Shown piece by piece: positions 11,203 through 35,876 of a stretch of 64,000 bases of DNA; position 1 is the stretch's first letter; each line of letters begins with the position of its first letter. Position numbers and translations under genes: made by a program. Below the pieces are notes generated by a model. That model was not told the DNA's origin. It did no database searches and was given only the letters and a program-made list of their open reading frames with translations. This DNA is from an uncultured Rhodospirillaceae bacterium (lineage in GTDB: Bacteria; Pseudomonadota; Alphaproteobacteria; UBA9219): positions 10,470-74,469 of the forward strand of contig CAZYPX010000001.1 of NCBI GenBank assembly GCA_964649675.1. Direction: 5' to 3'.

Positions 11203-11419
11203 TTCTTCCCTTCTTTTTGCTGCTGCGCGCCCAGGCGTCAATTTCATCCAATCGAAAGCGCCACGTGCCGCCGACTTTGAAGGCAGGAATTTCGCCTCGT
11301 GTAAGAAGGGTATAGATTGAGCGTTCCGTGACCTTGAGGTAAGCGGCGACTTCCTCAACGGTAAAGACCTCTGGCAAGCGTATCTTTTGCGACTCTGTCA
11401 TAGGGCGTAAAATATTCAA
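11195..11419 (-). CDS. AlpA/Xis-family (MerR-like HTH) excisionase/regulator
   Basis: 74-aa ORF: …FTVEEVAAYLKVTERSIYTLLTRGEIPAFKVGGTWRFRLDEIDAWA, a typical phage Xis/AlpA HTH_17. It is the first gene of the minus-strand operon. Confidence 0.55.
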   Translation of the reverse strand: MNILRPMTESQKIRLPEVFTVEEVAAYLKVTERSIYTLLTRGEIPAFKVGGTWRFRLDEIDAWARSSKKKGRNV

Positions 11420-11534
11420 AACTTTTCATTCCTGCAATCCTCCGTTTGACCCCTCCGTGCATGGCGGGGATCTTGTTGGAGGAATTGCTTCAAACGTGTC
11501 AGAAGTCCAGTTCTACGGCCCTTTCTTAAATTGG

Positions 11535-12964: not shown

Positions 12965-13093
12965 ACAAATCTCCATAGCTGCGGGAAGCAAGCACGTGAT
13001 AGCACGGTGATGTGCCAATTCCGGTCACATTGCCCCTTGGTCGCATGAGGTTTTCTGTGGCAAGGTGAGGCAAATCATTAACGAGCTAAAACC

Positions 13094-18920: not shown

Positions 18921-20339
18921 TTAATGAATTGCCCCAAACCTTTTCCGCGCATCCTTAACAGCCTTTTTGACCATGGCTGGAGACGTTCCACCATAACTTT
19001 TTCGGCTTTTCGCGGCGGTTTCCGGCGAAAGAATAGTGAAAATCGCTGGAGTTATCCGTGGTTCAGCCTTCTGTATTTCATCAAGCTTGAGTTGATCGAG
19101 CAGACATCCTTTCTCCTCTGCCATTCTCACGATATTTCCGGTCACGTGATGCGCTTGCCTGAATGGAAGACCAAGTTCTCGCACAAGCCAATCGGCCAAA
19201 TCAGTGGCCGTGATGAATCCTTCCTGTAAAGCTGAGTCCAGAGCTGCTTTGTTTGCTTTCATATCACGCACCATGCCCGCCATAGCTGCTATCACCAAGT
19301 GCAAGGTGTCTAGCGCGTCAAAAACAGGCTCCTTGTCTTCCTGCATGTCCTTGGCATACGTGAGCGCAAGACCTTTCATGACGACAAGCAGTGTACTAAA
19401 TGAGCCGAGCAATCGACCCGTTTTTCCTCGCACAAGTTCCGCAGCATCTGGATTGCGCTTTTGAGGCATGATCGAACTGCCGGAAGTAAATGCTTCGGAA
19501 AGTTTAACAAACCCAAAGCGCGGGTTGCACCAGATAACGAACTCTTCGGCCAATCTGGACAGGTTCATGCCGATAATGCTGGCCGTTGCAAGAAATTCGA
19601 GGGCAAAATCCCTTGCAGAAACGGCGTCCATTGAATTCGCCATGGGCTTTTCGAATCCCAGTTCTTTCGCAACCATGTGTCGATCAATCGGAAATGAAGT
19701 CCCGGCCAACGCAGCAGCACCTAGCGGCATTTCATTGACGCGTTTCCTGCAATCCACGAGGCGCGCCCGATCACGGCCCAACATCTCAACGTAAGCCAGC
19801 AGATGGTGACCCATTGTAACCGGCTGGGCCGGTTGCATATGCGTGAAGCCCGGCATCAAAACGGCGGCATATTCCTCAGCCTTGTCGATCAAAGCTGCTT
19901 GCAAGTCGCGAAGAGCGGAATCCAAACCGTCAATAGCGTCCCGAAGCCATAAGCGAAAGTCGGTCGTTACCTGATCGTTCCGTGAACGCGCGGTATGAAG
20001 CCTCTTGGCTGGTTCTCCGATCAATTCGCTCAGCCGAGATTCGATGTTCATATGAACGTCCTCAAGAGTACGCGAAAATTTGAACTGACCCGTCTCTATT
20101 TCCTTCTGTATCTTGTCCAGCCCTTTGTCGATCGCTTTCGCATCTTTCTGGCTGATGATCCCGCAAGCCGCGAGCATATTGGCATGGGCTTTCGAGGCGA
20201 GGATGTCGTGCGCATAAAGCCGCTTGTCCACGTCGACGGACGCGTTGATCTCGGCCATGATCGCGGCAGGCCCTTGCGAATAATGGCCACCCCACAATGG
20301 ATTAGCTGCATTCTTTTTTGATCCCAATTTGCGCTTCAT
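18921..20339 (-). CDS. argH: argininosuccinate lyase-family enzyme (ArgH-like; island copy)
   Basis: 472-aa ORF with the fumarase/aspartase-superfamily signature [12 protein letters not shown] and an N-terminal WGGHYSQGP, as in ArgH. Confidence 0.75.
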
Positions 20340-20342
20340 GTT

Positions 20343-21440
20343 TTATCCATTCGTGAAGGATTGGATGACGTTTTTGTAAACGGTTATGGCGCTTCGAATA
20401 GACGATAAGCTCGCATATTCATCAGCTATATGGGCCTGTTTAATGCTGCCGGGGCCAAGAATTATGCTTGGCGCTGTGGCAAAAGCCATATCACAGTTTC
20501 CGTTAAAAACGCACTCAGGCTCGTCTGAATAGTTTGCACGAAAGGCTTTCACAATTTTGGAATCCGGAGGGTTCTGCATAGGGTGCCTGCGATCAAACAA
20601 GACCTCTGCATCCACCCCTGTTTCCCGTATCGCCTGTATAACCCACTCGTTATTTCTCTCCGGTGTCGTGCGAATATCGAGGGTCGTTTCTATTAGCGAG
20701 GGTATCTGGTTGGCACTTTTACCACCTTGAACGATAGTCGGCTCTATCGTTGCCCCTCCCCACGGGGAATTGTCCTTTAGATCAATGGCACGAATAGCAA
20801 CTATATCTCGCAACAGCTTATCAATCGCGTTCTTGCCTTCCCACGGCGTGGAGGCATGGCATCCGATGCCACGTGATTTAATCTTGATGCCAATGGCTCC
20901 CCTCATTGCCGATGCCATTTGCAAATCGGTAGGTTCCCCAAAGATAGCGGCATCGTACCGAGGCAAGTCCGGCTCAATTTTAACAAAGCCATTCGGGCCT
21001 GTTTCCTCTTCCGCAACCAGACACAAAATTACCTTTCCGCATCTGAGTGGCTGCACAAGGCGGGTTGCTGCTATGAGGCTGACCACGGAGGCTCCAGCGT
21101 CATTCGCGCCAAGTCCAAAAAGTTTGTCGCCCTCAATTTCCGCGCCAAAAGGATTCTTCGTCCAGTTGTCCAGAACTTGTACAGTATCTATATGGCTGCA
21201 CAGAAGGAGCGTCGGGCCTTCTGATTGACCTTCCAATTCTACTATCAGGTTGTTGCCAATTCGCCTGACCTTGTCCGAAAAATAGGCGCGCAAAAGTCCT
21301 TGAAGATAATCGGCAGCTTTTGCTTCCTCCTTGGAAAGCGAGGGAATGGCAACCAACGATTGAAGAGTCGATATAGCCTCTTGAAAAATCAATTCCGCAT
21401 CCATTTTCTTCCTCCCCGAAAAATTGGTCACCATTCCCAT
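20343..21440 (-). CDS. M20-family metallopeptidase (ArgE/DapE-like deacylase)
   Basis: 365-aa ORF with LLLCSHIDTV…GANDAGASV…AEEETG motifs typical of M20 ArgE/DapE. It starts 4 nt after argH-like. Confidence 0.6.
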   Translation of the reverse strand: MGMVTNFSGRKKMDAELIFQEAISTLQSLVAIPSLSKEEAKAADYLQGLLRAYFSDKVRRIGNNLIVELEGQSEGPTLLLCSHIDTVQVLDNWTKNPFGAEIEGDKLFGLGANDAGASVVSLIAATRLVQPLRCGKVILCLVAEEETGPNGFVKIEPDLPRYDAAIFGEPTDLQMASAMRGAIGIKIKSRGIGCHASTPWEGKNAIDKLLRDIVAIRAIDLKDNSPWGGATIEPTIVQGGKSANQIPSLIETTLDIRTTPERNNEWVIQAIRETGVDAEVLFDRRHPMQNPPDSKIVKAFRANYSDEPECVFNGNCDMAFATAPSIILGPGSIKQAHIADEYASLSSIRSAITVYKNVIQSFTNG

Positions 21441-21448
21441 ATCAGCGT

Positions 21449-22684
21449 CTACACAGGCTCAGCCCCCATATAGACATTGCCGATCTTTTCTTTTTCCAAG
21501 GCGTGATAGAGCTTTTGCTCAAACCCATGCAGCAAAGCGCTGCCTGCAGCATCAGCCCCCGTGTATGCCTTCGAAAACTCGCCATATACGGCCCCATCTG
21601 CTTTCAGCAGGTCATACGGCGAAGTGACCAGAACGGCCTTGATCCTGCCCGGTACAAGAATGACACGGCAGGTTCCTGTGACACGCTTTTGCGAGCTGAC
21701 CAAAAAGGCCTTCAGATCGTCCATATAGGGATCGTAGGTTTTTGCCTCATGCAGCAGGATTCCAAAAGTTTCGGCGATCTGCTTTTTGCCGGTTATCTGG
21801 AATTGCGTCATGACGATAGCTTCGAGCCGCTTATGAGCCTCATAAATCAGATCGGCAGCCGGAGATTCAAAGGCAATACGGCCTTTCTTTCCCGGTGTCG
21901 TGGTGCTTAGGTAATAGTTACGGCCATATCCGAACCGGTTGCCAATCTCTGTAATGCGCTGGATAATGGCGACTTCGCCGGTCGTTTTCTGACCCTCGTA
22001 GCTGAGTTCAACTAGATTGCCTTGCTCAAAGGTGATGTCGAGAACAGCTTCAGTGGCATAGGGATCTGGCTGGCTGTACCATGCCTCCTCGGGTATCAGG
22101 CCATCAGCTTTGTGGGTCTCACCGCCGCCAATAGAAATTCCCCAAAGGCCAACGTTATAAGAATACGTAGTCTTTTTTTCTGTTATCGATATGCCGTGAT
22201 TACGCAGGTAATCTGCGGAAAATGTTCTGGTTATATCGAACTCGCGGATTGGCGATTTAGGAATGATTTTCCCGCCGCCCATGACTTGTGTGGCAACATC
22301 AAAGCGGTATTGATCATTACCCGCGCCTGTCGAACCATTAATGAAAAAGTTCGCGTCTTCTTTCTCGCAAATGTCCAGAACTTCCTTGGCAATCACAGGA
22401 CGTTCCGCGCTCACGCAAAGAGGATATCCGTCACGGGTCACGTTTCCGTAAATCAGATATTTTATAATGTGCTCGTAAAATTTGTCTGCGGCTTCAACAT
22501 AGATGTGCTTATCGGCACCAACTTCCTTACTTCTTTTGGCAATAGTTTCGGCTTCCGACGATCCGAAGCCTCCTGTGTTGACGGTGCAGGTTATGATTTT
22601 CTCTATTCCATAAGCCTCGCGGCAGTACGGAACCAGAAAGGAGGTATCGAGACCTCCCGAAAATGCGATTACGGCTATAGACAT
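21449..22684 (-). CDS. argG: argininosuccinate synthase-family PP-loop enzyme (ArgG-like; island copy)
   Basis: PP-loop AFSGGLDTS at the N-terminus plus downstream ArgG blocks (GSTGAGNDQYRFD, ISIGGGETH). The likely start is ATG 22684, which has an AGGAG RBS. The ORF track begins at the upstream GTG 22765. Confidence 0.75.
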   Translation of the reverse strand: MSIAVIAFSGGLDTSFLVPYCREAYGIEKIITCTVNTGGFGSSEAETIAKRSKEVGADKHIYVEAADKFYEHIIKYLIYGNVTRDGYPLCVSAERPVIAKEVLDICEKEDANFFINGSTGAGNDQYRFDVATQVMGGGKIIPKSPIREFDITRTFSADYLRNHGISITEKKTTYSYNVGLWGISIGGGETHKADGLIPEEAWYSQPDPYATEAVLDITFEQGNLVELSYEGQKTTGEVAIIQRITEIGNRFGYGRNYYLSTTTPGKKGRIAFESPAADLIYEAHKRLEAIVMTQFQITGKKQIAETFGILLHEAKTYDPYMDDLKAFLVSSQKRVTGTCRVILVPGRIKAVLVTSPYDLLKADGAVYGEFSKAYTGADAAGSALLHGFEQKLYHALEKEKIGNVYMGAEPV

Positions 22685-22712
22685 CTTTGTTCTCCTTCTG
22701 GAAACGGTTTCA

Positions 22713-23609
22713 TTACAGGTGGTAGCCTTGTGGACGCTCGATAATCGGCAAAAACACGCCATCACTGCGTGTTACGGAATACGGCGGAGCGATAATGTAG
22801 TGCTTTCCGCTCTCAATACCTTCCTGTATGCGTCGCTTTGTCGACATATCATGGGCGTTCAACCAGAAGGTCGGTTTGATCGGATGATCAGGTATTTCAA
22901 CGTGGTCGGGACTGTAATTCACGTTCATTTTCAAAATGAGCGTCATGTCCTTCCCTGGATGCAACGGAACCATTGATTGCTCTATTTCCATTGATTTGGA
23001 CACCCGTCCATGCACCTTGATTGAGGGGCTGTCGTATTGAGCAATAACGCGATACTCCTTGCCATTCGCCATGTGCGTTTCGAGGGACAGAATCTTGGTG
23101 TAGAGGCCGAGATTCTTAACCCCATCTATTTCCCTGCCGAGGCTAAACAGAGAGAAGTTTACGAAACTTCCGTCAGCTGCCATTGCATCAATCTGTCCCG
23201 AAACGGGAATATGAGAGAGTTGCTCAAGCTCGATGCAAGGATCATTTTGATAATGTTCCAGCATCACCTTGGGTATATCTCCTTTCGGCTTCATGAAGCC
23301 CACGACGCTTTCTTGCATCAGGACGCAATCGACATAGACCCATCCCGGCATCTTGTAGTCTGCTGATTTAAAGCTAAGCGAATTTGAGAGGAGATAGGCT
23401 TCAAGCAAGGCCTTATGTTCCTCAGCCTCCATGACAAAAGGGCAAAGGTCGATGCCGAAAGGCTTAAGGTTGAAGTGAGGCAAAAGCCGCTTGGACGTTG
23501 CTATATAGGGCACGTAACCGTGCTCTAGAAGTGAGGCAAGCCACGCAGGCGGCTTTTCTCTCACACTTTTTTCAATTTTAGACATTGGGGTACCTTCCTC
23601 CATTCCCAA
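22713..23609 (-). CDS. hypothetical protein (298 aa), first gene of the argG-like operon
   Basis: ORF with no motif I can assign. It ends 26 nt before the argG-like start. Confidence 0.35.
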   Translation of the reverse strand: MGMEEGTPMSKIEKSVREKPPAWLASLLEHGYVPYIATSKRLLPHFNLKPFGIDLCPFVMEAEEHKALLEAYLLSNSLSFKSADYKMPGWVYVDCVLMQESVVGFMKPKGDIPKVMLEHYQNDPCIELEQLSHIPVSGQIDAMAADGSFVNFSLFSLGREIDGVKNLGLYTKILSLETHMANGKEYRVIAQYDSPSIKVHGRVSKSMEIEQSMVPLHPGKDMTLILKMNVNYSPDHVEIPDHPIKPTFWLNAHDMSTKRRIQEGIESGKHYIIAPPYSVTRSDGVFLPIIERPQGYHL

Positions 23610-23858
23610 AACACAGAATTTGCGTTCAGGTCGGCGTTAAAAGTTTTGATGCAAGTCGGCATGCGCTTTTAACGCATGAAGACAAACACAGATGTAATTT
23701 AGGCAGGAGGATATGTGCGCCTAAGCGGCGCGTCGCAGCGTACGAAGAGCAGAAATGTGTGCGACATACTTCATGCGTCATATCCTATGCGAACGGGCCT
23801 GAAGATTCAATAGAAAACACAGGGTTTTTTACTTTCTTCGTGCCCATGGGCATGCCTA

Positions 23859-24836
23859 CTAAAACAACTCGCAAACCATGCAACGAACCGAACCGCCGCC
23901 GAATTTCTCAATCGTTGGGATTGGCGCTTTGATGAATCCCGTCACGTGATTTCGGTATTGCTTGATTTGCGTCCGTGTAAGTGCGCCAAAAGCGCACTGC
24001 GATAGAGCCAAATAACGTTCGTTACTACGGCCAACCACTTCCAGTGCATTTCCACTGAAACTGCGTACCTGATCTGATGTCAGCACGATTACTTCATGGT
24101 TTCGCTCAAGCTCGCTTACAACGCGCTGGCGGTCTCCCTGCACAATCATGTCGGCTGCTATAGCAGCGTACCCGGTACCGATATGGGCTACTACGTTCGT
24201 GTGATAAACAGGTTTGCCTGTGCTATCATCACAAGTGTCAAATACAACCGGTTTATAATCGGTAATCCTGCTCCAGATCTGGATTAAGTCGTCGTTGGTG
24301 CGGCGTGACCGCGCGACATAGGCTTCTCTGTTAATATGGTCGAGGACAAAAACACCCGTTCCCTCCAAACTTTGCCCCTGTCTTTCCGCGCGCGAAAGAT
24401 CAAAAACAAAGTCGTACTTTTCTTTAAGGAAGTTTGTTATGTCATCTCGTCGTTCACGACGGCGGCTTGGCGTCGCCATAGGATAAAGAAACATCGCACC
24501 ATCGGGCGTCGTTGACACCCAATTGTTTGGGAAAACATCATCGGGACAGTTTTTGCTTCCTACAAAACAGGTAACTTGGACACCAGCTTCCAAAAACCGA
24601 TCACGCAAATCGCGCATCTCACGTCTGGCATTTTCAGCGACCTCAGCAGCATTTAAGTCGTTTTTGTGCTGAAATCCGTTATCGACGCCTGTTTCGTGGT
24701 TGTAATTGAACGCAACCGGCTCGATCATAAGAATATGATTGGTAGATTGTGGTCTGTCTTGCATAAGCTCTCCTTTAAATGTCGTTTTGCTATAAAGTGA
24801 ATTGCTGTGCGGCCTCTTTGGGCGTTGAGAGCCCAC
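23859..24836 (-). CDS. guanidino-group modifying enzyme superfamily protein (DDAH/amidinotransferase/CtlX-like)
   Basis: 325-aa ORF with a C-terminal GGGSVRCMVCEL active-site Cys context typical of the amidinotransferase/DDAH/ADI fold. Confidence 0.5.
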   Translation of the reverse strand: MGSQRPKRPHSNSLYSKTTFKGELMQDRPQSTNHILMIEPVAFNYNHETGVDNGFQHKNDLNAAEVAENARREMRDLRDRFLEAGVQVTCFVGSKNCPDDVFPNNWVSTTPDGAMFLYPMATPSRRRERRDDITNFLKEKYDFVFDLSRAERQGQSLEGTGVFVLDHINREAYVARSRRTNDDLIQIWSRITDYKPVVFDTCDDSTGKPVYHTNVVAHIGTGYAAIAADMIVQGDRQRVVSELERNHEVIVLTSDQVRSFSGNALEVVGRSNERYLALSQCAFGALTRTQIKQYRNHVTGFIKAPIPTIEKFGGGSVRCMVCELF

Positions 24837-25854
24837 CGGGAACGCGGTGTTGATTGATGTTGTTTGTTAGGCAATGAATAGCCCCGCCTGCGGCAATGAA
24901 GCGGCTGACGTCTCTCGTAACAACTTCGTATCCAGCCTTGCGAATGCGTTCCTGAAGATCATTGCTGCATTCGGGAATGACGACCGTGCCATTCAGACAA
25001 ACAAGGTTACAGGCCAGCTTTTCGGCATCTTCTTTGGTCACGGGAATGAGGTAGTCATTTATTGGCAAGTCGTAATCGCCAAAAGCACGCTTTTTGAAAA
25101 ACTGAAGCGCTTTTGGAGAAATGCCCTTCTCGTAAAAAACGATGTGGCCCTTAGAGAGGGGCGCTAATGACGTATCAATATGAAAAAACGGTCGGCTTAC
25201 CGGGAGACTTACCACCTCTATTCCAGTCGTCGCTTTTAAAGCCTCATGCGCGCGTAAATCCGAACGCCCTGAAGCCGCGCAAGATCTGTCCGGCTGCTGA
25301 CAATATCCTGACCAAAAGACATCTCTGAAAGCATCATAGACATTATCGCCGGTACCCTCAGTCCGATAATAAGATTCGACAATAGGTCTGTTTGGAAGGT
25401 TGCGCTCGAAAAAAGCTGCATTTATTGCGACCTCGGTTTGCCGGTTTTCATTTGAAAAGCGGCTTAAGAGCGTAATTGATTTTGGCTGATTTGCCCTGCG
25501 CAAGTCCCAGCCATTCCCAATTACTGAAAGCGTTGGGTCGGCTGTAAACACCAAGTCCGGACAATTTCTATCCGGAGTGATTTCTACTACCTGAGCGCCG
25601 AGCGATACCAAAGTACGCTTTAAATCCTTCCATTGGGCATTTGCCTCGCGGCGAAACTTTTTAGGACTTTTTTGATATTCCCTGAATCCCTTAACTTCAA
25701 AATCGTTGGCAGCCCCAACCGCTAAGTCCGGTTCCCTGATCTCATAAAAATCTGGAGGACACATCAAAAAAACTGGGGCTTCACACGAGTTACCTGTCTC
25801 GTGTCCGCTTATGGCAAAATCTACGGCAGACATGGTTTTTGCGCTCCACAACAC
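24790..25854 (-). CDS. amidinotransferase-superfamily protein (second, overlapping paralogue-like gene)
   Basis: 354-aa ORF with C-terminal AAGGAIHCLTNN (conserved catalytic Cys). Its 3' end overlaps the next gene by 47 nt (translational coupling). Confidence 0.5.
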   Translation of the reverse strand: MLWSAKTMSAVDFAISGHETGNSCEAPVFLMCPPDFYEIREPDLAVGAANDFEVKGFREYQKSPKKFRREANAQWKDLKRTLVSLGAQVVEITPDRNCPDLVFTADPTLSVIGNGWDLRRANQPKSITLLSRFSNENRQTEVAINAAFFERNLPNRPIVESYYRTEGTGDNVYDAFRDVFWSGYCQQPDRSCAASGRSDLRAHEALKATTGIEVVSLPVSRPFFHIDTSLAPLSKGHIVFYEKGISPKALQFFKKRAFGDYDLPINDYLIPVTKEDAEKLACNLVCLNGTVVIPECSNDLQERIRKAGYEVVTRDVSRFIAAGGAIHCLTNNINQHRVPGGLSTPKEAAQQFTL

Positions 25855-26129
25855 AAATCAAATTATGTTGTTTGAGGTAACAAAATCCGCGCATACGAAG
25901 CCACGGCAGTAATGATCGCAAAGTGATCACCTTGTGAGCGCTTTCCGCTCAATTCTTTAAGGTGAGTGCACTGCTTTCATGCATTGATGCTTTATGGCTC
26001 AGTCGTTTCCTTTGATTCAAAATCGCTCATATAACGAGCGCAAAATGCTCATTAAACCCGATGCGGTTGCGCACACAAATTTGAAAAATGGAGGCATTCA
26101 ATGAACAGATTTTATGATCAGGAAACGTT

Positions 26130-27998: not shown

Positions 27999-28024
27999 AC
28001 CACAAAATTAACAGGAGAATACAA

Positions 28025-29137
28025 ATGAAAGATTTTTATAAAAAACATAAAGATGATTTTAAATTCGCTTGGGAAGTCGAATTGATGGTTACCGATGATA
28101 ACTACACACCTTTGTTTGGTGATACGTTACCGTTTGATCGTCTTCAAGACATCCTGAATTCCGTGCCAGTCAATGATATCCCGTATGTTGTCGAAAAATA
28201 CAAAGGGTCAGGTGTCCGTCCTTACTATATCGAAGGCTACGACGCCGGATATGAAGGGGAAAAAGTCCGAAGCGTCTTTGTAAAAGGGATCGAGATCCGC
28301 ACACCAATATCCTTCACAATAAATGACTCAGTTCAGTCCTTCGCTACATATTACGACAAGATGCAGACAGCGATAGAAGGCGAAAAACTTCACCTTACAT
28401 GTTTTGGTAATCATCCCTTCCAACCAGCCTTTAAAGGGGAACGAGGCCGCCGCAGTGTTATCGAATGGACTTCAGCAGAAGTAGCCACCACCACGCATGG
28501 GCTTGTCGTCAATATCAGTTTGCCCGACGCGCTTGAAGCCAAACTGGATCGGCAAAAGCTCGACATCCGCTTTTCCTACGCGGCCCCCACGATGGTGCTA
28601 TTTGCGGGAAACACGCCCTTCAGAAATGGCGAACTCTGGAAGCCCGATGGACGGCAAGCCTATTCAGATCGATCATACCGCAGATCATTCGTGCGCAATA
28701 CGGTCTATTACCGCGACGAGCATCACAATCGTAAGGAAGTGACATTGTTCGATATGACCAATGATCTGAACATGTACCGAGCTTTCGCGGCCCTTAGCCT
28801 TGGCATTATTCTCAGCGATGAGGAAGTTCCTGTAATCCCTGACCGTTTTTCGAAAGAAAATATCCGTCGCGTTACAAAGCATGGTTATGACGCACAACTC
28901 ATGAACAGGCACTTTGAAGAGGCTGCAGCTGAAACCGTAGCCCATCGCGTGCTCGACTTGGTCTCGACAGCCCTCAAGCAACATGGCTTTGACACCGCAA
29001 TGGTCAATCCATTATGGAAACAGGTCGAGGAGAAGGAAATGCCCGCTCATCGCACTATTCAAGCCTACAACGAAGGCGGGTCTATCCAGTCCGTGCTAAA
29101 GTCCCGTTCGCAGCTCATACGTCTGACCCGCGAATGA
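28025..29137 (+). CDS. divergent GCS2/YbdK-like carboxylate-amine ligase (tentative)
   Basis: 370-aa ORF. FAWEVELMV and VLFAGNTPF resemble the YbdK blocks LGVEFELGL and LSASSPF seen in the bona fide ybdK at 46280-47533 in this window. The similarity is weak. Confidence 0.35.
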   Translation: MKDFYKKHKDDFKFAWEVELMVTDDNYTPLFGDTLPFDRLQDILNSVPVNDIPYVVEKYKGSGVRPYYIEGYDAGYEGEKVRSVFVKGIEIRTPISFTINDSVQSFATYYDKMQTAIEGEKLHLTCFGNHPFQPAFKGERGRRSVIEWTSAEVATTTHGLVVNISLPDALEAKLDRQKLDIRFSYAAPTMVLFAGNTPFRNGELWKPDGRQAYSDRSYRRSFVRNTVYYRDEHHNRKEVTLFDMTNDLNMYRAFAALSLGIILSDEEVPVIPDRFSKENIRRVTKHGYDAQLMNRHFEEAAAETVAHRVLDLVSTALKQHGFDTAMVNPLWKQVEEKEMPAHRTIQAYNEGGSIQSVLKSRSQLIRLTRE

Positions 29138-29827
29138 TCACCGGCTTGACTTCGTGTGCTTCTGAACCATCGGCATTGTTTGCGTCGCCTTTTCCCACAG
29201 AGATGTGAAATGGCGACGCGCCGAAATAACCATCTTGGGCGACTCAACAAGAATGAGTTTGCCAAAAGGTTCTCCATTTGGAGCCACGATGCCGTATTTC
29301 TCGCCATAGACGCAAAATGGCACGGGATCCATAAAGGTGCGTGGCAGGACACGGAATTGAAACCGAGGTGTTGAAAATGGCGGTTCAATCTCATCCGTCA
29401 GCAAACATTTAATTGTCACAGTGCTGTTAAGATCAACAAGCGCGTCAAGGTCGGTAATACGTCCTATACCGCAATACTTGGCGAACGCAGCTGACGTTGG
29501 CGCAACAATAAGGACATCTCCGCCATAGTGCTGAACAGTTTGCTTCAGATCCTCGTAGAAATCTTTACCGCCGTGTCCGCCTTCGTAGATATGAACGCCG
29601 CTCAATCGCCTCCGGAGGCCATCCGACTCCAGAAACTCGATACCGGCAGTTTCAAGACATTGCCTTATCTGCGTGGTCGTTGCTCCACGCGGCATAAAGC
29701 CGGTTTCAATCCGTCTTATAGTTGCCAGCGATATGCCCGTGGCATTCGCCAATTCCTTTTGCGACCAGTCTAACAAAGCCCGCGCTGCTCTGATTTGCCG
29801 CGAGCTGATACTATCAACCCGCCACAT
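29138..29827 (-). CDS. XRE-type HTH protein with conserved C-terminal domain of about 150 aa (paralogue 1)
   Basis: N-terminus IRAARALLDWSQKELANATGISLATIRRIE. The C-terminus shares blocks (GIEF, GGDV, KCLL, FQFR, P.PF..YG.KY, F…WEK) with the ORFs at 31172, 33377 and 63110. Confidence 0.55.
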   Translation of the reverse strand: MWRVDSISSRQIRAARALLDWSQKELANATGISLATIRRIETGFMPRGATTTQIRQCLETAGIEFLESDGLRRRLSGVHIYEGGHGGKDFYEDLKQTVQHYGGDVLIVAPTSAAFAKYCGIGRITDLDALVDLNSTVTIKCLLTDEIEPPFSTPRFQFRVLPRTFMDPVPFCVYGEKYGIVAPNGEPFGKLILVESPKMVISARRHFTSLWEKATQTMPMVQKHTKSSR

Positions 29828-30335
29828 GATATTCTCCTAAATTTGCATTTTCGGGTAAAAAGAATTCAGCCATATCGATTAGCTCATGCAGGACAGGTGT
29901 CTCGGCATGTTTCAAAAGGCTAATTTTCTTTAGAAACCTGTGCTTGCGTTTTTGCTTCGGTAGAAGTGGATCTTCGGAGGCTACCCGACCGGAATAGACA
30001 AGCGTGTAGACCGGCTCGCCTTTATCATTCCTTCCCTCAAGAATACTTGAAACGCGCAGGTCGCCAAGCTTCACGTTGGCGGCTTCAATGGCTTCCCTTC
30101 TAGCCGCGTCCTCAGCGTCTTCATCATCCCACTCGACCTTACCGCATAAAATTGAGTACTTCCGGCCCTGCCTAAAGGACAAAATTCTATCCTGATCGTT
30201 AAACGCAATCACCTTGACCCTACGAACCCTATCGGGATCGTAAGGAAAAACAGGTTCATGAAGCTGGATATCTATCATCAATAAGCCTCCAGCCAATTCA
30301 ATTCGACTTTCGCGAGGCCATAAGCCATGCGCCAA
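29814..30335 (-). CDS. NUDIX-like hydrolase (degenerate Nudix box)
   Basis: GKVEWDDEDAEDAARREAIEAANV approximates GX5EX7REUXEEXGU. 173 aa. Confidence 0.35.
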   Translation of the reverse strand: MAHGLWPRESRIELAGGLLMIDIQLHEPVFPYDPDRVRRVKVIAFNDQDRILSFRQGRKYSILCGKVEWDDEDAEDAARREAIEAANVKLGDLRVSSILEGRNDKGEPVYTLVYSGRVASEDPLLPKQKRKHRFLKKISLLKHAETPVLHELIDMAEFFLPENANLGEYHVAG

Positions 30336-30487
30336 TGCTGCTCGATTTCTCCTTGAGTAAAACCTTCCGCCTTCAAGTCTTCGGGACGGCAGGATCCGTT
30401 GTTTTTCAGGAGTTCAATGATGGCGGTCGCCATGCGGTCGCAATCAGCAAAGAATCCTTTATCGCCTTGGATGCCAACGATTTTCAT
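30278..30487 (-). CDS. hypothetical small protein (69 aa)
   Basis: ORF only. It overlaps neighbours at both ends, so the start is uncertain. Confidence 0.2.
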   Translation of the reverse strand: MKIVGIQGDKGFFADCDRMATAIIELLKNNGSCRPEDLKAEGFTQGEIEQHWRMAYGLAKVELNWLEAY

Positions 30488-30924
30488 ATTTCCTCTCCTT
30501 CGTCGGCTTTTATTTCCTCGTCGATCATCGCCAAAACGCGGTTCGCGATCAGGTCGTCGGTAGCCATCTGGTAAAAATGCTGTTCCCGGAGGCGCGTTTG
30601 GCGAACTATGAGTTGTTCATAAAACTGAAGTAAGGTGGGTCGATCATGCGGAAGAGAGGCATCGCCTTTGTTCACGAGCTGACCTTTGAAATGATTGATC
30701 ATGTCGTTGATAGTGGTGCTGCTGACAGAAGGAACTTGATCGCATCTGCCAAATTGCTCTGGATGTGTTACTATGCAGAACTCTTCGATAAGACCGGCCA
30801 GCTTTCTTGCTTTATCCGCACCATCGTTATTGGCGTTTTCGCCCTTCATAACGACCGCTAAAAATCCCAAAGCTGTGAAAAGAACCTTAAAATCCGTGCG
30901 TGTCATGAAATCCTCTTTGATCAA
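30484..30924 (-). CDS. hypothetical protein (146 aa), first gene of the NUDIX/XRE operon
   Basis: ORF in the same orientation and tightly packed with the downstream genes. Confidence 0.3.
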   Translation of the reverse strand: MIKEDFMTRTDFKVLFTALGFLAVVMKGENANNDGADKARKLAGLIEEFCIVTHPEQFGRCDQVPSVSSTTINDMINHFKGQLVNKGDASLPHDRPTLLQFYEQLIVRQTRLREQHFYQMATDDLIANRVLAMIDEEIKADEGEEI

Positions 30925-31127
30925 ATATCACTTTGACCAAATGCGCAGGATCCCAAGCGTAAAACCACTTGTATATTTGTAGGTATTCAATGAAGTTTTG
31001 GAGGTTTCATACAAAAACAAGGACAGTTAGCGAAATTCGCTGATTTTTTGTATGTTTTTGCGAAGCTGAAAAGCAGGTGACGCAGATCGCGTATATTAAT
31101 TTGCTGTTATGAAGCACAAAAAACGAT

Positions 31128-31152
31128 AAGCGCGGCACCAACCGCGCTATAT
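31128..31152 (-). terminator. rho-independent terminator after XRE paralogue 2
   Basis: Minus-strand hairpin AGCGCGG-TTGGTG-CCGCGCT followed by a T-rich run (TATCGTTTTTTGTG). Confidence 0.35.
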
Positions 31153-31171
31153 CGAACCAATCCAAAATGTT

Positions 31172-31831
31172 TTAAGCGTTTGTGCGAGCGGTAAGCGGTC
31201 TGCCTTTTTCCCAAAAGACGTGAAATTGTGTGCGATGGGAGCTGGCCATACGTGTGGACGTGAAGACAAGATACCTGTAATTGCCGTTTTCTTCCAGGAG
31301 GACGTGAGCGTATTTATTGCCGTAAATATAAAACGGTGGCGGCATAATCGAGAAGCTGGTTATTGCGCGAAATTCAAACTGCGGAATTCTCATAGCAAAT
31401 TCGGAAGTTTGCGGCAGCAAGCATTTCACAGGAGCAATTTTGCCGATCTGCAGCAGTCGATCCATCGCATTTGGCCCAACGGCCCCACACGTATCGGCAA
31501 GCATCTCGGAGGATTCCATCATTGAAACCACGTCCCCGCCTCGCAGCTGTATAGTGGTCTTCAGGTCTTCGAGGAAACATTCGGTGCTTTTCTCGCCCAT
31601 AAAAACGTCAAAGTCTCGACGGCGTTGAACGCCTTCGGCGGTAGTAAACTCCAGTCCAGCCTTCTCGACAGCGCGTTTAATGTTTTCAGCAACTCTCACG
31701 CTTGGGACACAGCCCGTTTCGATGTTGCGGATCGTTGAAACGGCGACACCTGCTTCTTCAGCCATTCGTTCCTGAGACCAGTCAAGCATGGCTCTGGCGG
31801 CTTTGATTTGAGCTGGCTGCAAGCGGTACAT
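31172..31831 (-). CDS. XRE-type HTH protein with conserved C-terminal domain (paralogue 2)
   Basis: IKAARAMLDWSQERMAEEAGVAVSTIRNIE plus the shared C-terminal blocks. Confidence 0.55.
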   Translation of the reverse strand: MYRLQPAQIKAARAMLDWSQERMAEEAGVAVSTIRNIETGCVPSVRVAENIKRAVEKAGLEFTTAEGVQRRRDFDVFMGEKSTECFLEDLKTTIQLRGGDVVSMMESSEMLADTCGAVGPNAMDRLLQIGKIAPVKCLLPQTSEFAMRIPQFEFRAITSFSIMPPPFYIYGNKYAHVLLEENGNYRYLVFTSTRMASSHRTQFHVFWEKGRPLTARTNA

Positions 31832-31852
31832 AAGTTTGTCCTTGAAAATCTT

Positions 31853-32155
31853 TTATTCAAATACTTCGTTCGCCACCTTGGCATCTTCAGCTTGATCTGC
31901 GGAAGAGTGTTGCTGAAGTTTTTCCTTCAACGAAACCCCATGCTGCGTAAAAAACTCAACACCGTGATCTGAAAATACGCTTATAATTTTCTCAACTGTC
32001 GCAGCGGTCGGCATAAACTGACCGTGCTCGATATTTTTTACTGTTTCAGCGGAAATACCTACGAATTTCCCGCATTGCGCTCGACTCCAGTCCAACAGTG
32101 CTCTGGCAGCACGAAGTTGTACAGGTTTGATGGTTGTAGGGGTCTGCTGCTTCAT
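31853..32155 (-). CDS. short XRE-type HTH protein (HTH module only; paralogue 5)
   Basis: VQLRAARALLDWSRAQCGKFVGISAETVKNIE…HGVEFF. The likely start is M29 of the listed ORF (32155), which avoids overlap with the upstream gene. Confidence 0.45.
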   Translation of the reverse strand: MKQQTPTTIKPVQLRAARALLDWSRAQCGKFVGISAETVKNIEHGQFMPTAATVEKIISVFSDHGVEFFTQHGVSLKEKLQQHSSADQAEDAKVANEVFE

Positions 32156-32168
32156 AGTTCGGCTCTTG

Positions 32169-32489
32169 TTAGTTGATGGCCTCGGCAAAGTTAAAATTGA
32201 CGAGATAACGAACGACATCATCAAATTGATCTCGTTCAAAATCTTTGACGGCTTTAACGCCGAAGGCTGTCGTCAAAATTGCGACAACCAGTTCTGCACT
32301 AACGTTTTGTGAGTAGGCCACGTAGGCAACTACAGCAGAAACTGCTCTCAATTCCTGTTGTGCAAACTTCCCCGTATAAAGGGAGGCAAGCTCTATATTG
32401 ATGGGATTTGCGCGTTCGGCGAAGTAGTCATGCGCCGGTTTGGCTTCCTCAATCATTTTACGAATAAGAGCTTTACGATCTGACAACAT
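32169..32489 (-). CDS. small protein of unknown function (paralogue A)
   Basis: Shares a conserved core (…A.V.AYVA.SQ.V..E.V..I.TT..G..AV…Q…Y.D.VEYLV…) with 32506-32832. Confidence 0.35.
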   Translation of the reverse strand: MLSDRKALIRKMIEEAKPAHDYFAERANPINIELASLYTGKFAQQELRAVSAVVAYVAYSQNVSAELVVAILTTAFGVKAVKDFERDQFDDVVRYLVNFNFAEAIN

Positions 32490-32505
32490 GACGAACCTTA
32501 AATAA

Positions 32506-32832
32506 TTAGTTCACAACCTGATCCATCTTCAAATCTACCAGGTACTCAATGGCGTCTTGATAAAGGCGCGAAGGCAGCGCCGCCACGGCACCGATACCAT
32601 AATGAGTTGTAATGACCTCACACACGGTCTCTTCCCGAACTTTCTGCGTATGAGCTACATAAGCAATCAGGCCGAGAACAGCGGTCAGCTCAATTTTGTT
32701 CAGGGATTTTTCGTTGGCTTTCCGATGGGCAATGAGGGCAGAGGTCAAACGGTTAAGCTCGCCAGTCGAGATTTCACCATCTTCCGTTCGGTCGCTTGAG
32801 ATAATCGCTTTTTGAATTTTCGAACTGGTCAT
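32506..32832 (-). CDS. small protein of unknown function (paralogue B)
   Basis: 108-aa tandem paralogue of 32169-32489. Confidence 0.35.
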   Translation of the reverse strand: MTSSKIQKAIISSDRTEDGEISTGELNRLTSALIAHRKANEKSLNKIELTAVLGLIAYVAHTQKVREETVCEVITTHYGIGAVAALPSRLYQDAIEYLVDLKMDQVVN

Positions 32833-32853
32833 TTGAAATCCCTCTCTGTAAAA

Positions 32854-33060
32854 TTAGGCCATACCTGCGGCATACGCTCCCGTTTCACTGGTGAAATATT
32901 TGTCCGTTTCGCGGATGAAATAATTCCAGCGATCCTCTAAGGACATCACAACTTGATGTTTGATTTTCATGTGGCGTTCCCAGCCTTCGACAATCTCGTG
33001 GGCAACGCTTTCGCCGCGTGTTGCGACATATGTGTCAAAATGCATCGTCATTAATTTCAT
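32854..33060 (-). CDS. hypothetical small protein (68 aa), first gene of the small-protein/XRE operon
   Basis: ORF with a plausible RBS context, sitting at the head of a five-gene minus-strand array. Confidence 0.25.
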   Translation of the reverse strand: MKLMTMHFDTYVATRGESVAHEIVEGWERHMKIKHQVVMSLEDRWNYFIRETDKYFTSETGAYAAGMA

Positions 33061-33282
33061 CCCTTAAAAAATAACGTCAATTTACCCTTAATGTTTGTGA
33101 CCTTACCAAACGGGTCGGGTGAAAGCAAGGTAATAGTTTATGTGAGAGATACTCAAAGTTACTTTAATAGTAATATTGCAGCCACCAGAAAAGCCTGCAG
33201 AAGACCAAAATCTTTAACTACTTCTTAACACTTAACAGCGCCATACCCATAATTGGTAGATTAGTACCAATAACCGGTAAAA

Positions 33283-33304
33283 TTTTGCCGATCATCTTCT
33301 TGCT
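33283..33304 (+). promoter_or_regulatory. palindromic candidate operator AATTGGTA-N6-TACCAATA upstream of XRE paralogue 3 and AsnB-like 2
   Basis: The perfect 8-nt inverted repeat with a 6-nt spacer lies about 70 nt upstream of ATG 33377 in an AT-rich promoter region. That region also holds three CTTAAC direct repeats (33216-33240). Confidence 0.3.
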
Positions 33305-33376
33305 TTTCTTGTGCAACTATTTCTGCTATGGTAATTTAAAATTACTCTGAGAGATACATTTCAACAGGAACAAGCC

Positions 33377-34036
33377 ATGCCAACAGGGAAACAAGTCAGG
33401 GCTGCACGGGTTCTCGCTGGATGGGATGCGGAGCATCTTGCGCAAAGCACAGGTCTCACCGCCGTCACCATCCTAAAGATTGAGCGAGACGAAGCAATGC
33501 CACGTCCGGCCACGATGGAGAAAATTGTTCGGGCGTTTGACAAAGAAGGCATCGAGTTCACCGACAACCAAGGCGTTCGATTCAAACCAACGGGCGTTAC
33601 CGTATATGATGGTGTGGCTGCCTTCGAAGACTTCCATGAATTCCTGTATCTCCATTTGAAACAACACGGCGGTGAAGTTTGCCTGAGCATTTATGATGAA
33701 CCTTCGCTCGCCAAGTACCGTAAAGATCCTGAAATACATCGCTCACGCATGAGAGAGTTGGTAGGTAGCGGAAAAGTCACCTTCAGAATACTGACGACAC
33801 AAAGCAGTTGGAATACGCGTGGGTACATTCAATTTAAATGGCTGCGAAACCAACGGCCTTTACCTACAGGCTTTTATGCGTTCGGAGATTGCTTGGCATT
33901 GGTGTCATTTGTTGATCCGCAATCGCCATATGTTGTCGTTCTTCAATCAGGGCCAATGACTGAAGCCTATCGCCAAGGCTTCAATATCGCATGGGATTCA
34001 GCGGAGAATCCCCCAAGCGAAGGCACCGATAAATGA
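33377..34036 (+). CDS. XRE-type HTH protein with conserved C-terminal domain (paralogue 3)
   Basis: VRAARVLAGWDAEHLAQSTGLTAVTILKIE plus the shared C-terminal blocks. It is followed 13 nt later by AsnB-like 2. Confidence 0.55.
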   Translation: MPTGKQVRAARVLAGWDAEHLAQSTGLTAVTILKIERDEAMPRPATMEKIVRAFDKEGIEFTDNQGVRFKPTGVTVYDGVAAFEDFHEFLYLHLKQHGGEVCLSIYDEPSLAKYRKDPEIHRSRMRELVGSGKVTFRILTTQSSWNTRGYIQFKWLRNQRPLPTGFYAFGDCLALVSFVDPQSPYVVVLQSGPMTEAYRQGFNIAWDSAENPPSEGTDK

Positions 34037-34049
34037 GTGGGGAATAGCT

Positions 34050-35876
34050 ATGTGTCGAATCTTCGGACAATTAGGCCATCCTCATATTGATGAAAGAGTA
34101 TTGCAGCGAGTTGCGCTCGCTATGGTGCATGGCGGCCCAGATCGTCAAAATTACGTAGTCGGCAATATGTGGGCCATGGGCAGCGACCGCTTGGCTATAC
34201 AAGGAATCGAGGGCGGCAATCAGCCATTCACAGAGCACAAAGGTCTCTGCATTTTATTCAATGGCGAAATTTACAATCACCGTGCGCTCAGAGAAGACTT
34301 AAGAACACAAGGCTTCTCCTTTTCTGATGAATGTGACGGCAACGTTATTGCGCCGCTATTTTTGCTCCATGGGGCGGATTTTGTCAGATATCTTGAAGGC
34401 ATGTTTGCCATTGCTCTGTTGGACGAGCGCAGCCAGCCGACGCTTTATGTGTATTCAGATCCGTCTGGTATGAAATCCGTCTACTACCAATGGGACAGCA
34501 AAAACCAAGTTCTGAGTTTTGCTTCCGAAATTGAGGGTTTGGCTTTGTTGACGCAGACCCCGCTTACTATCAAGCCCAAGCCCCTTTACGATTACTTTTC
34601 TTTACGTGCTATTTGTGGCGAAGAAACGATTTTTCAGAACATTTCTACGCTGGGGCCAGCTCGCATGTTGCGCTATGAGTTGGGCAAAGAGCCACAAATT
34701 ACTACTTATTCCTCCGCCGCAAAGTCGGAAACACCCGATAACGATCTAACGAAGGCCGGACTTCAACTGCGTGACCTTCTGGACAAAGAAATCGCGTTGC
34801 AGCTGGCTTCAGATATGCCGGCGTGCCTTGTTATAAGCGGAGGTGTAGATTCGTCCCTAGTCGCGGCTTTGGCAGCTCGACAAAAGGATAATCTTCACTC
34901 ATTTCACCTTTGTTATAAGGGCAACTGGCCGTACGACGAACGAAGGTATGCGCGTGACACAGCCGAGAAATGGCGCATCAATCATCATGATGTCGAGCTT
35001 GATCCGGATACATTCCCTGCCTCTATTATGAAAATGGTTCGGCATCTCGGACAGCCTAACTGGGCACCCCATACCTTAAGCACCTACTGTTTATTCGAAG
35101 AAATTCACAACTCTGGATTTAGAGTTGCTATTACTGGTGAAGGTTCTGACGAGTTTTTTGGCGGTTACCAATATTACAGTTCAGCCTTGGCCGAGGGCAA
35201 TAACTGGGTTGATGACTTTTTGTATAAACTCAGTCCATTTACGAAAACAGTGCGCGACGATGTGCTTGCTTCCGATTATAAAGAACTTCTATGCAGCCAG
35301 ACAACTCACGTCGAAGAGTACACCAAACAATTAGAGAAAACGCGTCCTGGCGAGGAACGGCTCAATTTGATGCAATCCTTCGATCAACAAATGCGTTTTC
35401 CAAATTATATTTTGCGTCGCGGCGATCATTTGAGCATGGCACATGCTGTTGAGATGCGTGCTCCGTTTTGTCAACCACGCATCATGGATTTTGGATCACG
35501 CTTACCGTTTGGGCATCGCGTGTCAGTGGAACAAAGAAAACGCACAGTTTATGAAGCGGCACGCGGGCTTGTTCCCGACTCCGTAATGAACCGCGAAAAG
35601 CAAGCATTCGTTCTTCCGATTACAGAAATGATAAAACGTGGAAGTCGATTGTACGATTTTATGATGTCTATTTTTGAATCGGCATCATTTCGTCATCGTG
35701 GCTACTTTGATGCGGATAGGATATTGGCTTATTCCCAGCAACAAGCCAAAACTCCAAGCGTTGATGTTGCCAATGCGATGTGGGCGGCAATGTCTCTTGA
35801 ATTATGGCTTCAATATATTGACGAAATAAATTCGGAACTTGAGTTGTCCCCCTTGGTCGAGCAGGAAGTGGCTTGA
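34050..35876 (+). CDS. asparagine synthetase B-like glutamine-dependent amidoligase (second copy)
   Basis: MC N-terminus, PP-loop VISGGVDSS, 608 aa; paralogous to 26130-27998. Confidence 0.7.
   Translation: MCRIFGQLGHPHIDERVLQRVALAMVHGGPDRQNYVVGNMWAMGSDRLAIQGIEGGNQPFTEHKGLCILFNGEIYNHRALREDLRTQGFSFSDECDGNVIAPLFLLHGADFVRYLEGMFAIALLDERSQPTLYVYSDPSGMKSVYYQWDSKNQVLSFASEIEGLALLTQTPLTIKPKPLYDYFSLRAICGEETIFQNISTLGPARMLRYELGKEPQITTYSSAAKSETPDNDLTKAGLQLRDLLDKEIALQLASDMPACLVISGGVDSSLVAALAARQKDNLHSFHLCYKGNWPYDERRYARDTAEKWRINHHDVELDPDTFPASIMKMVRHLGQPNWAPHTLSTYCLFEEIHNSGFRVAITGEGSDEFFGGYQYYSSALAEGNNWVDDFLYKLSPFTKTVRDDVLASDYKELLCSQTTHVEEYTKQLEKTRPGEERLNLMQSFDQQMRFPNYILRRGDHLSMAHAVEMRAPFCQPRIMDFGSRLPFGHRVSVEQRKRTVYEAARGLVPDSVMNREKQAFVLPITEMIKRGSRLYDFMMSIFESASFRHRGYFDADRILAYSQQQAKTPSVDVANAMWAAMSLELWLQYIDEINSELELSPLVEQEVA

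Follow-up and report, generated by a model that had tools for sequence, protein, structure and literature searches.

A composite 17-kb locus in an uncultured alphaproteobacterium with a divergent ArgG-like enzyme, its GNAT-fold partner and an AsnB/YbdK-fold ligase cassette

Introduction

Whether neighbouring genes for arginine-type chemistry and for amide bond formation make up one pathway or several is the question raised by positions 18921-35876 of a 64-kb window, by which is meant the whole stretch of 64,000 nucleotides analysed here (contig CAZYPX010000001.1 of assembly GCA_964649675.1, from an uncultured Rhodospirillaceae bacterium). The contig is metagenomic (ENA ERZ17914141). An initial annotation had taken these 17 kb for one enzyme cluster inside a defence island, dedicated to some guanidino or amidino compound, and a check with Pfam and NCBIfam profiles finds all of the gene families it named at the positions given for them. 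Genes in the window were called from an open reading frame (ORF) listing together with Pfam and NCBIfam; a scan for promoters and terminators returned sites no more numerous than in shuffled sequence and was not used for operon definition.

The support is good for the 17 kb being a composite of three adjacent units and not a single pathway. Unit A (18921-25833, minus strand) is an arginine/citrulline/ornithine module arranged as an operon, transcribed in the order arginine-dihydrolase-like gene, CtlX-like gene, a gene for a 290-aa protein, a divergent ArgG-like gene, an M20 deacylase gene and ArgH. Unit B (26130-29137, plus strand), divergent from this operon, is a cassette of an AsnB-type synthetase and a YbdK-fold ligase, and in Unit C (29138-35876) a second AsnB is found together with XRE paralogues, a NUDIX gene that is degenerate and some small proteins. 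Taken together with a particular view of the chemistry, namely an N-acyl route in Unit A and a ligase cassette in Unit B, the three-unit reading is the one favoured here, with moderate confidence.

Conservation of the arginine module

The context of the module was followed over 27 distinct loci carrying homologues of the 290-aa protein, which come mostly from Micavibrionales-like metagenome-assembled genomes (MAGs) and include one from Agrobacterium rosae. The gene for this protein, which has a GNAT fold, and the ArgG-like gene are adjacent in 26 of the 27, the ArgG-like gene lying directly downstream; in 12 the next gene after the ArgG-like one is the M20 gene, and ArgH is adjacent in 6. As many as 25 of these loci hold the module without any AsnB or GCS2-like gene, and on this result the idea of one co-inherited 17-kb set falls. 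The gene combination nonetheless goes beyond chance, and parts of it recur in other genomes. The neighbours include ribosomal-protein genes, nusG, secE and typA (loci L003 and L004), an ABC-F gene with folD (L009), recQ (L020) and, on a 1.42-Mb contig, dxs and tol-pal genes (L069). Locus L012 has the gene order of the window and an ArgH 79% identical to the window ArgH, and the closest relative of the window is L007, with arginine-module proteins 70-83% identical, among them a dihydrolase-like orthologue at 70%. A CtlX-like gene also lies beside the module in both L002 and L007.

Since the GNAT-fold/ArgG-like pair is found mostly in housekeeping contexts, and adjacent in nearly all of the loci, it is assigned to host arginine-family metabolism and not to defence cargo. 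No species-representative genome scanned carried two module loci, and therefore the module is read as the copy of these two genes that the lineage normally carries, in place of the extra island copies first proposed. That Unit A is a vertically kept, lineage-typical arginine-family operon of host metabolism is thus well supported.

The substrate pocket of the ArgG-like enzyme

The ArgG-like PP-loop ligase (411 aa; 21449-22684, minus strand) has both ArgG Pfam domains (Arginosuc_synth at 1.2e-32 and Arginosuc_syn_C at 3.5e-26) and the PP-loop AFSGGLDTS, and its homologues are already annotated publicly as 'argininosuccinate synthase'. Against the TIGR00032 model it scores 227.5 bits, below the cutoff of 268.2, and it also stays below the cutoffs of NF010392, NF003385 and NF001770. 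Pocket residues are numbered as in human ASS1, from a reference sequence in which the published ligand residues fall where they should, and the ASS1-based alignment is confirmed independently by HMMER alignments to two bacterial enzymes of solved structure, 6xnq and 1j1z (T. thermophilus).

On this numbering the aspartate ligands T119, N123 and D124 and the ureido ligand R127, as well as Y87 and S180, are kept in all 120 of the closest homologues, and S189 is kept in 119 of them and in the window copy. E191 and E270, the two glutamates that presumably hold citrulline by its free alpha-amino group, are lost: position 191 is G throughout the 120 homologues and in the window copy, and position 270 is G (112 homologues) or S (8 homologues, and the window copy). 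Both are citrulline ligands in the human enzyme, where E191Q and E270Q abolish activity (PMC13289927). It is therefore well supported that the ArgG-like enzyme is not a canonical argininosuccinate synthase, and the early suspicion of a chemistry out of the ordinary holds in this respect, the enzyme having lost two citrulline ligands. To judge from its sequence it would still adenylate a ureido group and add aspartate.

The loss of E191 and E270, and the flanking genes for an acyltransferase-fold protein and an ArgE-like deacylase, would suit a substrate whose alpha-amino group is blocked; the likely candidate would be an N-alpha-acylated citrulline, with an acyl group that the GNAT-fold protein attaches and the M20 enzyme removes. 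Set beside canonical ArgG/ArgH and the cyanobacterial ornithine-ammonia cycle with its ArgZ, the module shares the PP-loop, the aspartate and ureido ligands, a canonical ArgH and an ArgZ-like dihydrolase nearby, and departs from canonical ArgG in the loss of the two citrulline ligands, in a sub-equivalog score and in an obligate coupling to the GNAT-fold gene. In practical terms, at least 120 protein clusters bear the name 'argininosuccinate synthase' without two ligands that the human enzyme cannot do without, while their GNAT-fold partner goes unannotated, and tools that look for pathway gaps would misjudge arginine prototrophy in these alphaproteobacteria, which are predatory or epibiotic.

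A GNAT-fold family upstream of the ArgG-like gene

The 290-aa protein ('Unk290'; 22713-23585, minus strand) had been listed, at 22713-23609, as a mere unknown. So far as sequence families go this stands, as a Pfam scan of 40 family members at E values up to 10 gave no consistent family and a search of the family profile against PDB sequences gave nothing meaningful; by structure it does not, since the protein has a GNAT fold, to which an extra C-terminal subdomain is added. In the family alignment the beta4-alpha3 loop is variable and the acyl-CoA pyrophosphate loop (Q/R-x-x-G-x-G/A) is not recognisable; a match to a sequence model of a GNAT family is absent as well.

Homologues of the protein form 116 clusters, which all come from uncultured bacteria, the named ones being Alphaproteobacteria, Micavibrio or Micavibrionaceae, and a profile search of 1.84 billion representatives found 308 relatives, all unnamed and some with tandem duplications. 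A tblastn search of the PLSDB plasmids with the GNAT-fold protein gave no match. It is well supported that this is a new family with a GNAT fold and the fixed upstream partner of the ArgG-like gene. Among the distant relatives, eight (P0288, P0296, P0327, P0338, P0360, P0303, P0347 and P0358) have two copies in one protein of 540-690 aa and come from high-GC uncultured organisms.

One protein in the literature resembles it by description. ACG33_RS14135 of Steroidobacter denitrificans (UniProt A0A127FCT3), predicted as an alternative N-succinylglutamate synthase (10.1101/2024.10.14.618325), is likewise a hypothetical protein with a remote GNAT-like fold, almost always in operons with argG and argH and sometimes an argE candidate. 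The likeness does not extend to its best fold match, 7XRJ, which is outside the top 50 Foldseek matches of the 290-aa model, nor to the operons, which in the Steroidobacter type carry argB/C/D/F' whereas the window module does not. Neither the profile search nor a look-up of cluster names pointed to a function or tied the family to the Steroidobacter protein.

The remaining enzymes of Unit A

The last gene of the operon, at 18921-20339 on the minus strand, encodes by its sequence a bona fide argininosuccinate lyase (ArgH, 472 aa), with 592 bits against TIGR00838 (cutoff 279.5) and the Pfam architecture of Lyase_1 followed by ASL_C2. Upstream of it, the M20 deacylase of the ArgE/DapE family (353 aa; 20343-21404, minus strand; Pfam Peptidase_M20 and M20_dimer) scores 161 bits with TIGR01910, below the cutoff, and its best solved relative is 3ct9, an 'acetylornithine deacetylase', at 171 bits.

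The first two genes of the operon encode members of the DDAH/guanidino-modifying superfamily, and both proteins keep a cysteine in a conserved C-terminal motif, presumably at the position of the catalytic Cys of the DDAH superfamily. The CtlX-like citrulline-type hydrolase (301 aa; 23859-24764, minus strand; Pfam DDAH_eukar at 1.1e-77) is a near miss to the CtlX model NF046062, at 311.4 bits for a cutoff of 334, and has its cysteine in GGGSVRCM. The arginine-dihydrolase-like enzyme (347 aa; 24790-25833, minus strand) reaches 121 bits with NF052232 (Arg_dihydro), which is sub-cutoff, its best solved relatives being ArgZ Sll1336 and AgrE Alr4995 at 86 bits. These two genes, first described as translationally coupled, do not overlap, the ATG of the CtlX-like gene at 24764 being 25 nt after the upstream stop, and a Shine-Dalgarno sequence of its own, AAGGAG, precedes that ATG.

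A possible N-acyl route

On the favoured reading the GNAT-fold protein would acylate the alpha-amino group of an arginine-pathway intermediate, which may be glutamate, as for Bacteroidetes ArgA2, or ornithine or citrulline. The ArgG-like enzyme would then adenylate the ureido oxygen of N-alpha-acylated citrulline and add aspartate, ArgH would take off fumarate and the M20 enzyme would take off the acyl group, with the dihydrolase-like and CtlX-like hydrolases perhaps turning arginine and citrulline, or their acyl forms, back to ornithine. A 229-aa XRE protein encoded in Unit C is the likely regulator. If true, the N-acyl reading means that the acyl group, known from N-acetyl and N-succinyl variants of the pathway, stays on for one or two steps more of arginine synthesis, and it gives a function to the new GNAT-fold family.

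Arginine operons of a related kind are known. The arginine operon of Bacteroides thetaiotaomicron has the gene for the GNAT BT3761 immediately before argG (BT3760), and BT3761 is genetically required for arginine synthesis (PMC8121099); the Bacteroides pathway uses N-succinylated intermediates (PMC8121099; PMC9026213). With the Bacteroidetes operon (argR, BT3761/ArgA2, argG, argC and other genes, with N-succinylornithine carbamoyltransferase) Unit A shares a GNAT gene upstream of argG, presumably N-acylated intermediates, and an ArgE-like M20 enzyme. It belongs to a known kind, the arginine operon with a GNAT next to argG, an order established in Bacteroidetes (PMC8121099). Three things set Unit A apart, namely a GNAT-fold family beyond the reach of sequence models (no Pfam GNAT match, and an extra C-terminal subdomain), an altered ArgG pocket without E191 and E270, and the absence of argB, argC, argD and argF or argF' from the locus; for the ArgG-like enzyme the comparison with the Bacteroidetes operon is one of gene order and not of those two positions. 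Within the 64-kb window none of argB, argC, argD, argF/F' or carAB is present.

The same precedent lends itself to a simpler explanation, that Unit A is plain arginine synthesis with the GNAT-fold protein as an ArgA analogue, an ArgG-like enzyme using free citrulline and an ordinary ArgE in the M20 enzyme, the other arg genes being dispersed and the AsnB and GCS2-like genes unrelated. Besides the known GNAT-argG adjacency of ArgA2 (PMC8121099), it can draw on the GapMind 2026 preprint, which proposes a remote-GNAT hypothetical protein as ArgA (10.1101/2024.10.14.618325), on the canonical ArgH, on the public naming of the homologues, and on OTCase-family and AA_kinase-family genes found on contigs with a related cassette. 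It is nonetheless thought unlikely, as E191 and E270 are intolerant of substitution in human ASS yet absent from every one of the 120 family members, no early arginine genes adjoin the module in the 27 loci, a cultured relative is reported to be without almost the whole pathway (PMC3189940), and the repeated adjacency of the cassette to arginine genes goes unexplained.

A LysW-type carrier pathway was also considered for the region and rejected, there being no ATP-grasp ArgX/LysX gene and no carrier gene.

The AsnB/YbdK-fold cassette

Unit B begins with AsnB1 (622 aa; 26130-27998, plus strand), a glutamine-type amidotransferase and adenylating synthetase with Pfam GATase_7 and Asn_synthase domains, the motifs MCRIYG and SGGLDSS, and 297 bits against TIGR01536 (cutoff 267). 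The second enzyme is a carboxylate-amine ligase of 370 aa (28025-29137, plus strand) for which the GCS2-like call is sub-threshold by sequence, at 17.7 bits against Pfam GCS2 (PF04107) with a gathering score of 21, which marks it as a distant branch. The call is borne out by the fold: an AlphaFold2 model with a pLDDT of 89.9 matches YbdK (1r8g) in Foldseek with an E value of 7.6e-14 and a TM score of 0.67-0.70, further matches being plant glutamate-cysteine ligase, GshF, PafA/Dop and glutamine synthetase. Five residues at acidic metal-ligand positions (E17, E19, E70, E90 and E152) are invariant among its homologues. Elsewhere in the window, at 46280-47533 on the minus strand and in the core region, is a conventional YbdK-family ligase (TIGR02050, 224 bits for a cutoff of 176), which has no detectable BLAST similarity to the cassette ligase.

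The 370-aa ligase is rare. Only 21 homologous clusters were found among 5.8e9 proteins, from Pseudomonas, Agrobacterium, Niallia, Streptomyces and MAGs; tblastn with the GCS2-like protein against the PLSDB plasmids gave a single distant Serratia match, and a metagenome scan with its profile returned mostly distant GCS2 proteins of below 30% identity in unrelated contexts, only L037-L040 being useful. In every informative context an AsnB-type gene accompanies it, and lies directly upstream of it in the window, in Pseudomonas, in A. rosae and on two metagenome contigs, whereas in Niallia and on an actinobacterial contig the two genes are in one cluster in a different order. The company varies, with an FAD oxidoreductase, M20, LysR and exporters in Pseudomonas, and PrpD, PrpF, an FAD enzyme and two ATP-grasp ligases in Niallia. 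A rare, patchily distributed and portable AsnB/YbdK-fold cassette is well supported by these contexts.

Arginine genes are a recurring part of the company. On a repABC-type contig of A. rosae the cassette lies beside an ArgG-like gene (61% identical to that of the window, and carrying the G/G substitutions too) and a gene for the GNAT-fold protein (38%), identity to the window being 53-61% for the three proteins other than the GNAT-fold one. This locus (L036; FMUE01000019.1, 3208-13341) reads MFS transporter, ATP-grasp, AsnB, GCS2-like, FAD oxidoreductase, RidA-like, ArgG-like, GNAT-fold and LysR; it adjoins repB/parA-type genes and is the only locus from a named species, as opposed to a MAG, with all four shared genes together. 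In L007 a different GCS2-family ligase and a divergent ASL-type lyase take the place that AsnB1 and the GCS2-like gene have in the window. Two contigs of JGI sample 3300059473 (P0125 and P0122) carry co-directional AsnB, GCS2-like, ArgS and OTCase-family genes followed by an AstE/AspA-family gene, the gaps among the AsnB, GCS2-like and arginyl-tRNA synthetase genes being 2-30 nt. Because the cassette repeatedly adjoins arginine genes, its substrate is probably an arginine-family metabolite, and this context makes a compact, portable two-enzyme unit approachable for experiments.

Quite what such a pair might do is suggested by analogy with FzmN/FzmA and TsnB9, in which a ligase of the glutamine synthetase (GS) fold couples an amine to glutamate, and the gamma-glutamyl compound then serves an AsnB homologue instead of glutamine (PMC6133997). 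By this analogy the YbdK-fold ligase would make a gamma-glutamyl or similar amide of an amine, and AsnB1 would amidate an adenylated carboxylate with glutamine or the gamma-glutamyl-amine as donor; the gamma-glutamyl relay, like the N-acyl-citrulline substrate of Unit A, is something we infer only. The fosfazinomycin/kinamycin cassette as a whole (FzmN GS-like, FzmA AsnB, FzmQ GNAT, FzmR ASL-like and FzmO amidase) contains the same enzyme classes as the window and uses Asp and Glu as nitrogen carriers (PMC6133997). The likeness is one of logic only, as the window has no nitrous-acid-forming genes of the FzmM/FzmL type and its ligase has the YbdK/GCS2 fold and not that of GS type I; membership of the fzm/kin hydrazine pathway was rejected, there being no nitrite-forming genes.

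In the NAGGN osmoprotectant system a GNAT-ligase (Ngg), an amidotransferase (AsnO) and a peptidase lead to an N-acyl dipeptide amide. An AsnB-type enzyme, an amide ligase, a GNAT and a metallopeptidase are common to it and the window, and both AsnB proteins of the window match TIGR03104, but at 245-247 bits they are far below its cutoff of 570, and the ligase is not of the Ngg type.

The original proposal takes all of 18921-35876 as one dedicated pathway. The ArgG-like enzyme and ArgH would install a guanidino group and the three ligases would form amide bonds. What is built or edited would be a peptide or small molecule with a guanidino or amidino group; an antimetabolite resembling a dipeptide and a solute of the N-acyl dipeptide amide type are examples. 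The A. rosae contig joins AsnB, GCS2-like, FAD oxidoreductase and RidA genes to the ArgG-like/GNAT-fold pair, with ATP-grasp and MFS genes alongside; L007 has its GCS2-family ligase and ASL-like lyase at the corresponding position; the pocket of the ArgG-like enzyme is altered; and relatives of the GCS2-like protein occur in surroundings like those of biosynthetic gene clusters in Niallia and the actinobacterium. To be set against these are the 25 of 27 module loci that have housekeeping surroundings and neither ligase gene, the absence from the window of the FAD oxidoreductase, ATP-grasp ligase and exporter seen with the cassette elsewhere, the lack of any conserved link between the second AsnB and the module, and an ArgH that is a standard equivalog. 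As a whole the one-pathway proposal is judged improbable; of its parts, a tie of the amide ligases to arginine-type chemistry is plausible from the A. rosae adjacency and from L007.

Weighing the three-unit reading

A bolder form of the favoured reading, in which Units A and B draw on one pool, is tentative and rather doubtful. Here the GNAT-fold, ArgG-like and M20 proteins, with or without ArgH, would be an undescribed branch of arginine metabolism that keeps the N-alpha-acyl group through the synthase step, the ArgG-like enzyme acting as an N-acylcitrulline:aspartate ligase and the M20 enzyme on N-acyl-argininosuccinate or N-acyl-arginine, and the cassette would be a gamma-glutamyl-amine relay tapping the same pool for an arginine-derived amide.

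Several points count against what has been favoured here. The A. rosae cluster and the GCS2/ASL-like pair of L007 argue that Units A and B may be one pathway. The N-acyl idea comes from two lost ligands and the gene context, and free citrulline might bind in another way; more generally, the functions proposed for all of the cluster proteins are predictions. In one locus (L028, 4170-6284) the GNAT-fold gene is convergent to a canonical ArgG in which E191 and E270 are kept, beside an AsnC-type regulator and PutA, and this pairing suggests that the GNAT-fold partner is tied to this chemistry in general. Not one of the 27 loci has argB, argC, argD or argF close to the module, and Micavibrio aeruginosavorus is reported to be without almost the whole arginine pathway (PMC3189940); because of these two observations biosynthesis from glutamate is uncertain. 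The GC content of the arginine genes is 0.48-0.52, nearer to that of the defence genes (0.43-0.53) than to the polA-typA core (about 0.59, within 0.50-0.60 for core genes), so that native origin is not settled by GC, and in both the window and L007 the module borders defence genes.

Unit C, the flanks and the question of defence

Immediately downstream of the cassette and on the opposite strand is the gene for the 229-aa XRE helix-turn-helix (HTH) protein (29138-29827, minus; Pfam HTH_3), whose homologues flank the module in L002, L007 and L012 and which is the best candidate for a regulator of the arginine module. It belongs to a set of four XRE-type paralogues that the initial annotation did not list. 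Two more (219 aa and 128 aa; Pfam HTH_3) are encoded together with two small paralogous proteins (106 aa and 108 aa) at 31172-32832 on the minus strand, and another of 219 aa (33377-34036, plus; Pfam HTH_3) lies 14 nt upstream of the second AsnB gene. By pairwise BLAST the three long XRE proteins are full-length paralogues at 27-36% identity, the range among all HTH proteins being 27-40%; the 219-aa protein at 33377-34036 is 29% identical to the 229-aa protein over its full length, and the two small proteins are paralogues at 29-36%. The XRE proteins end in a domain of about 150 aa that belongs to no known family. A prophage origin of this XRE-rich segment was rejected, there being no viral relatives, no integrase and no tRNA, the last absent from the whole window.

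The NUDIX-fold protein (154 aa; 29814-30278, minus; Pfam NUDIX 8.3e-8) is present as had been said, at these coordinates and not at 30484-30924, where the 146-aa protein encoded on the minus strand matches nothing in Pfam, NCBIfam or PADLOC. Its Nudix box, REAIEAANV, has the second catalytic Glu and the Gly replaced, and the gene overlaps the start of the downstream 229-aa XRE gene by 14 nt. The 146-aa protein has a 41% identical homologue in a syntenic segment of L007, a similar run of XRE, small-protein and 146-aa-protein genes lying there beside the arginine module.

AsnB2 (608 aa; 34050-35876, plus) is 39% identical to AsnB1 and scores 340 bits against TIGR01536 (cutoff 267), with the N-terminus MCRI and an SGG(L/V)DSS PP-loop, so that both AsnB-type proteins have the expected Met-Cys N-termini and exceed the cutoff; the GATase_7 and Asn_synthase domains, too, are present in both. 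In none of the related loci is AsnB2 near the arginine module, and it may be an ordinary asparagine synthetase.

As for the flanks, the defence-type genes are on the left only (3194-18806): a Ppl-like ATPase (934 aa), a WYL/WCX regulator, a 441-aa protein, a 1139-aa helicase, and a T5orf172/helicase protein with a split Eco57I-type methyltransferase that together resemble a type IIG restriction-modification (RM) system. The 1139-aa helicase has an RNase-H-like domain and resembles MkoA in its C-terminal part only. On the right are recQ, polA, hrcA, typA and further core genes, and for this reason the cluster is placed at the edge of a patch of defence genes and not inside an island.

An anti-phage system which depletes or modifies arginine-family metabolites on infection could be imagined from the left-hand neighbours (the type IIG RM system, Ppl-like ATPase, WYL regulator and MkoA-like helicase), from the many XRE-type regulators and from L007, where the module is followed by a type I-C CRISPR-Cas locus. 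It seems very unlikely. PADLOC-DB v2 gives no match for the partner of the ArgG-like enzyme, the DDAH-type proteins, AsnB1, the GCS2-like, NUDIX or 146-aa proteins, its only matches in the cluster being to generic HTH and, at 2e-4, to a QueC-type PP-loop; scans of viral contigs with AsnB2 and an XRE paralogue found no relatives; and in most genomes the module is in core contexts, far from defence genes. With no cluster protein matching a known defence family, a defence role of the cluster is unlikely and the left-side defence genes are neighbours, not partners. A metabolic operon at the border of a defence hot spot is thus not to be read as defence cargo.

By megablast the region as a whole had no match in complete genomes of E. 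coli. In the assembly that holds L007 and L011 (GCA_028692635.1, 13195-20864) an ornithine/arginine decarboxylase gene comes after the module, ahead of the type I-C CRISPR-Cas locus, and the flank after the arginine module appears to be a variable hot spot there. To the right of Unit C in the window, recQ (35893-37770, minus) scores 538 bits with TIGR01389 over its N-terminal half and is divided into ORFs of 355 aa and 269 aa by a single in-frame TAG at 36703-36705 (…EDVAKLR*MIEDGE…). This TAG could point to a pseudogene or be an amber codon that is suppressed, or it could come from an error in sequencing.

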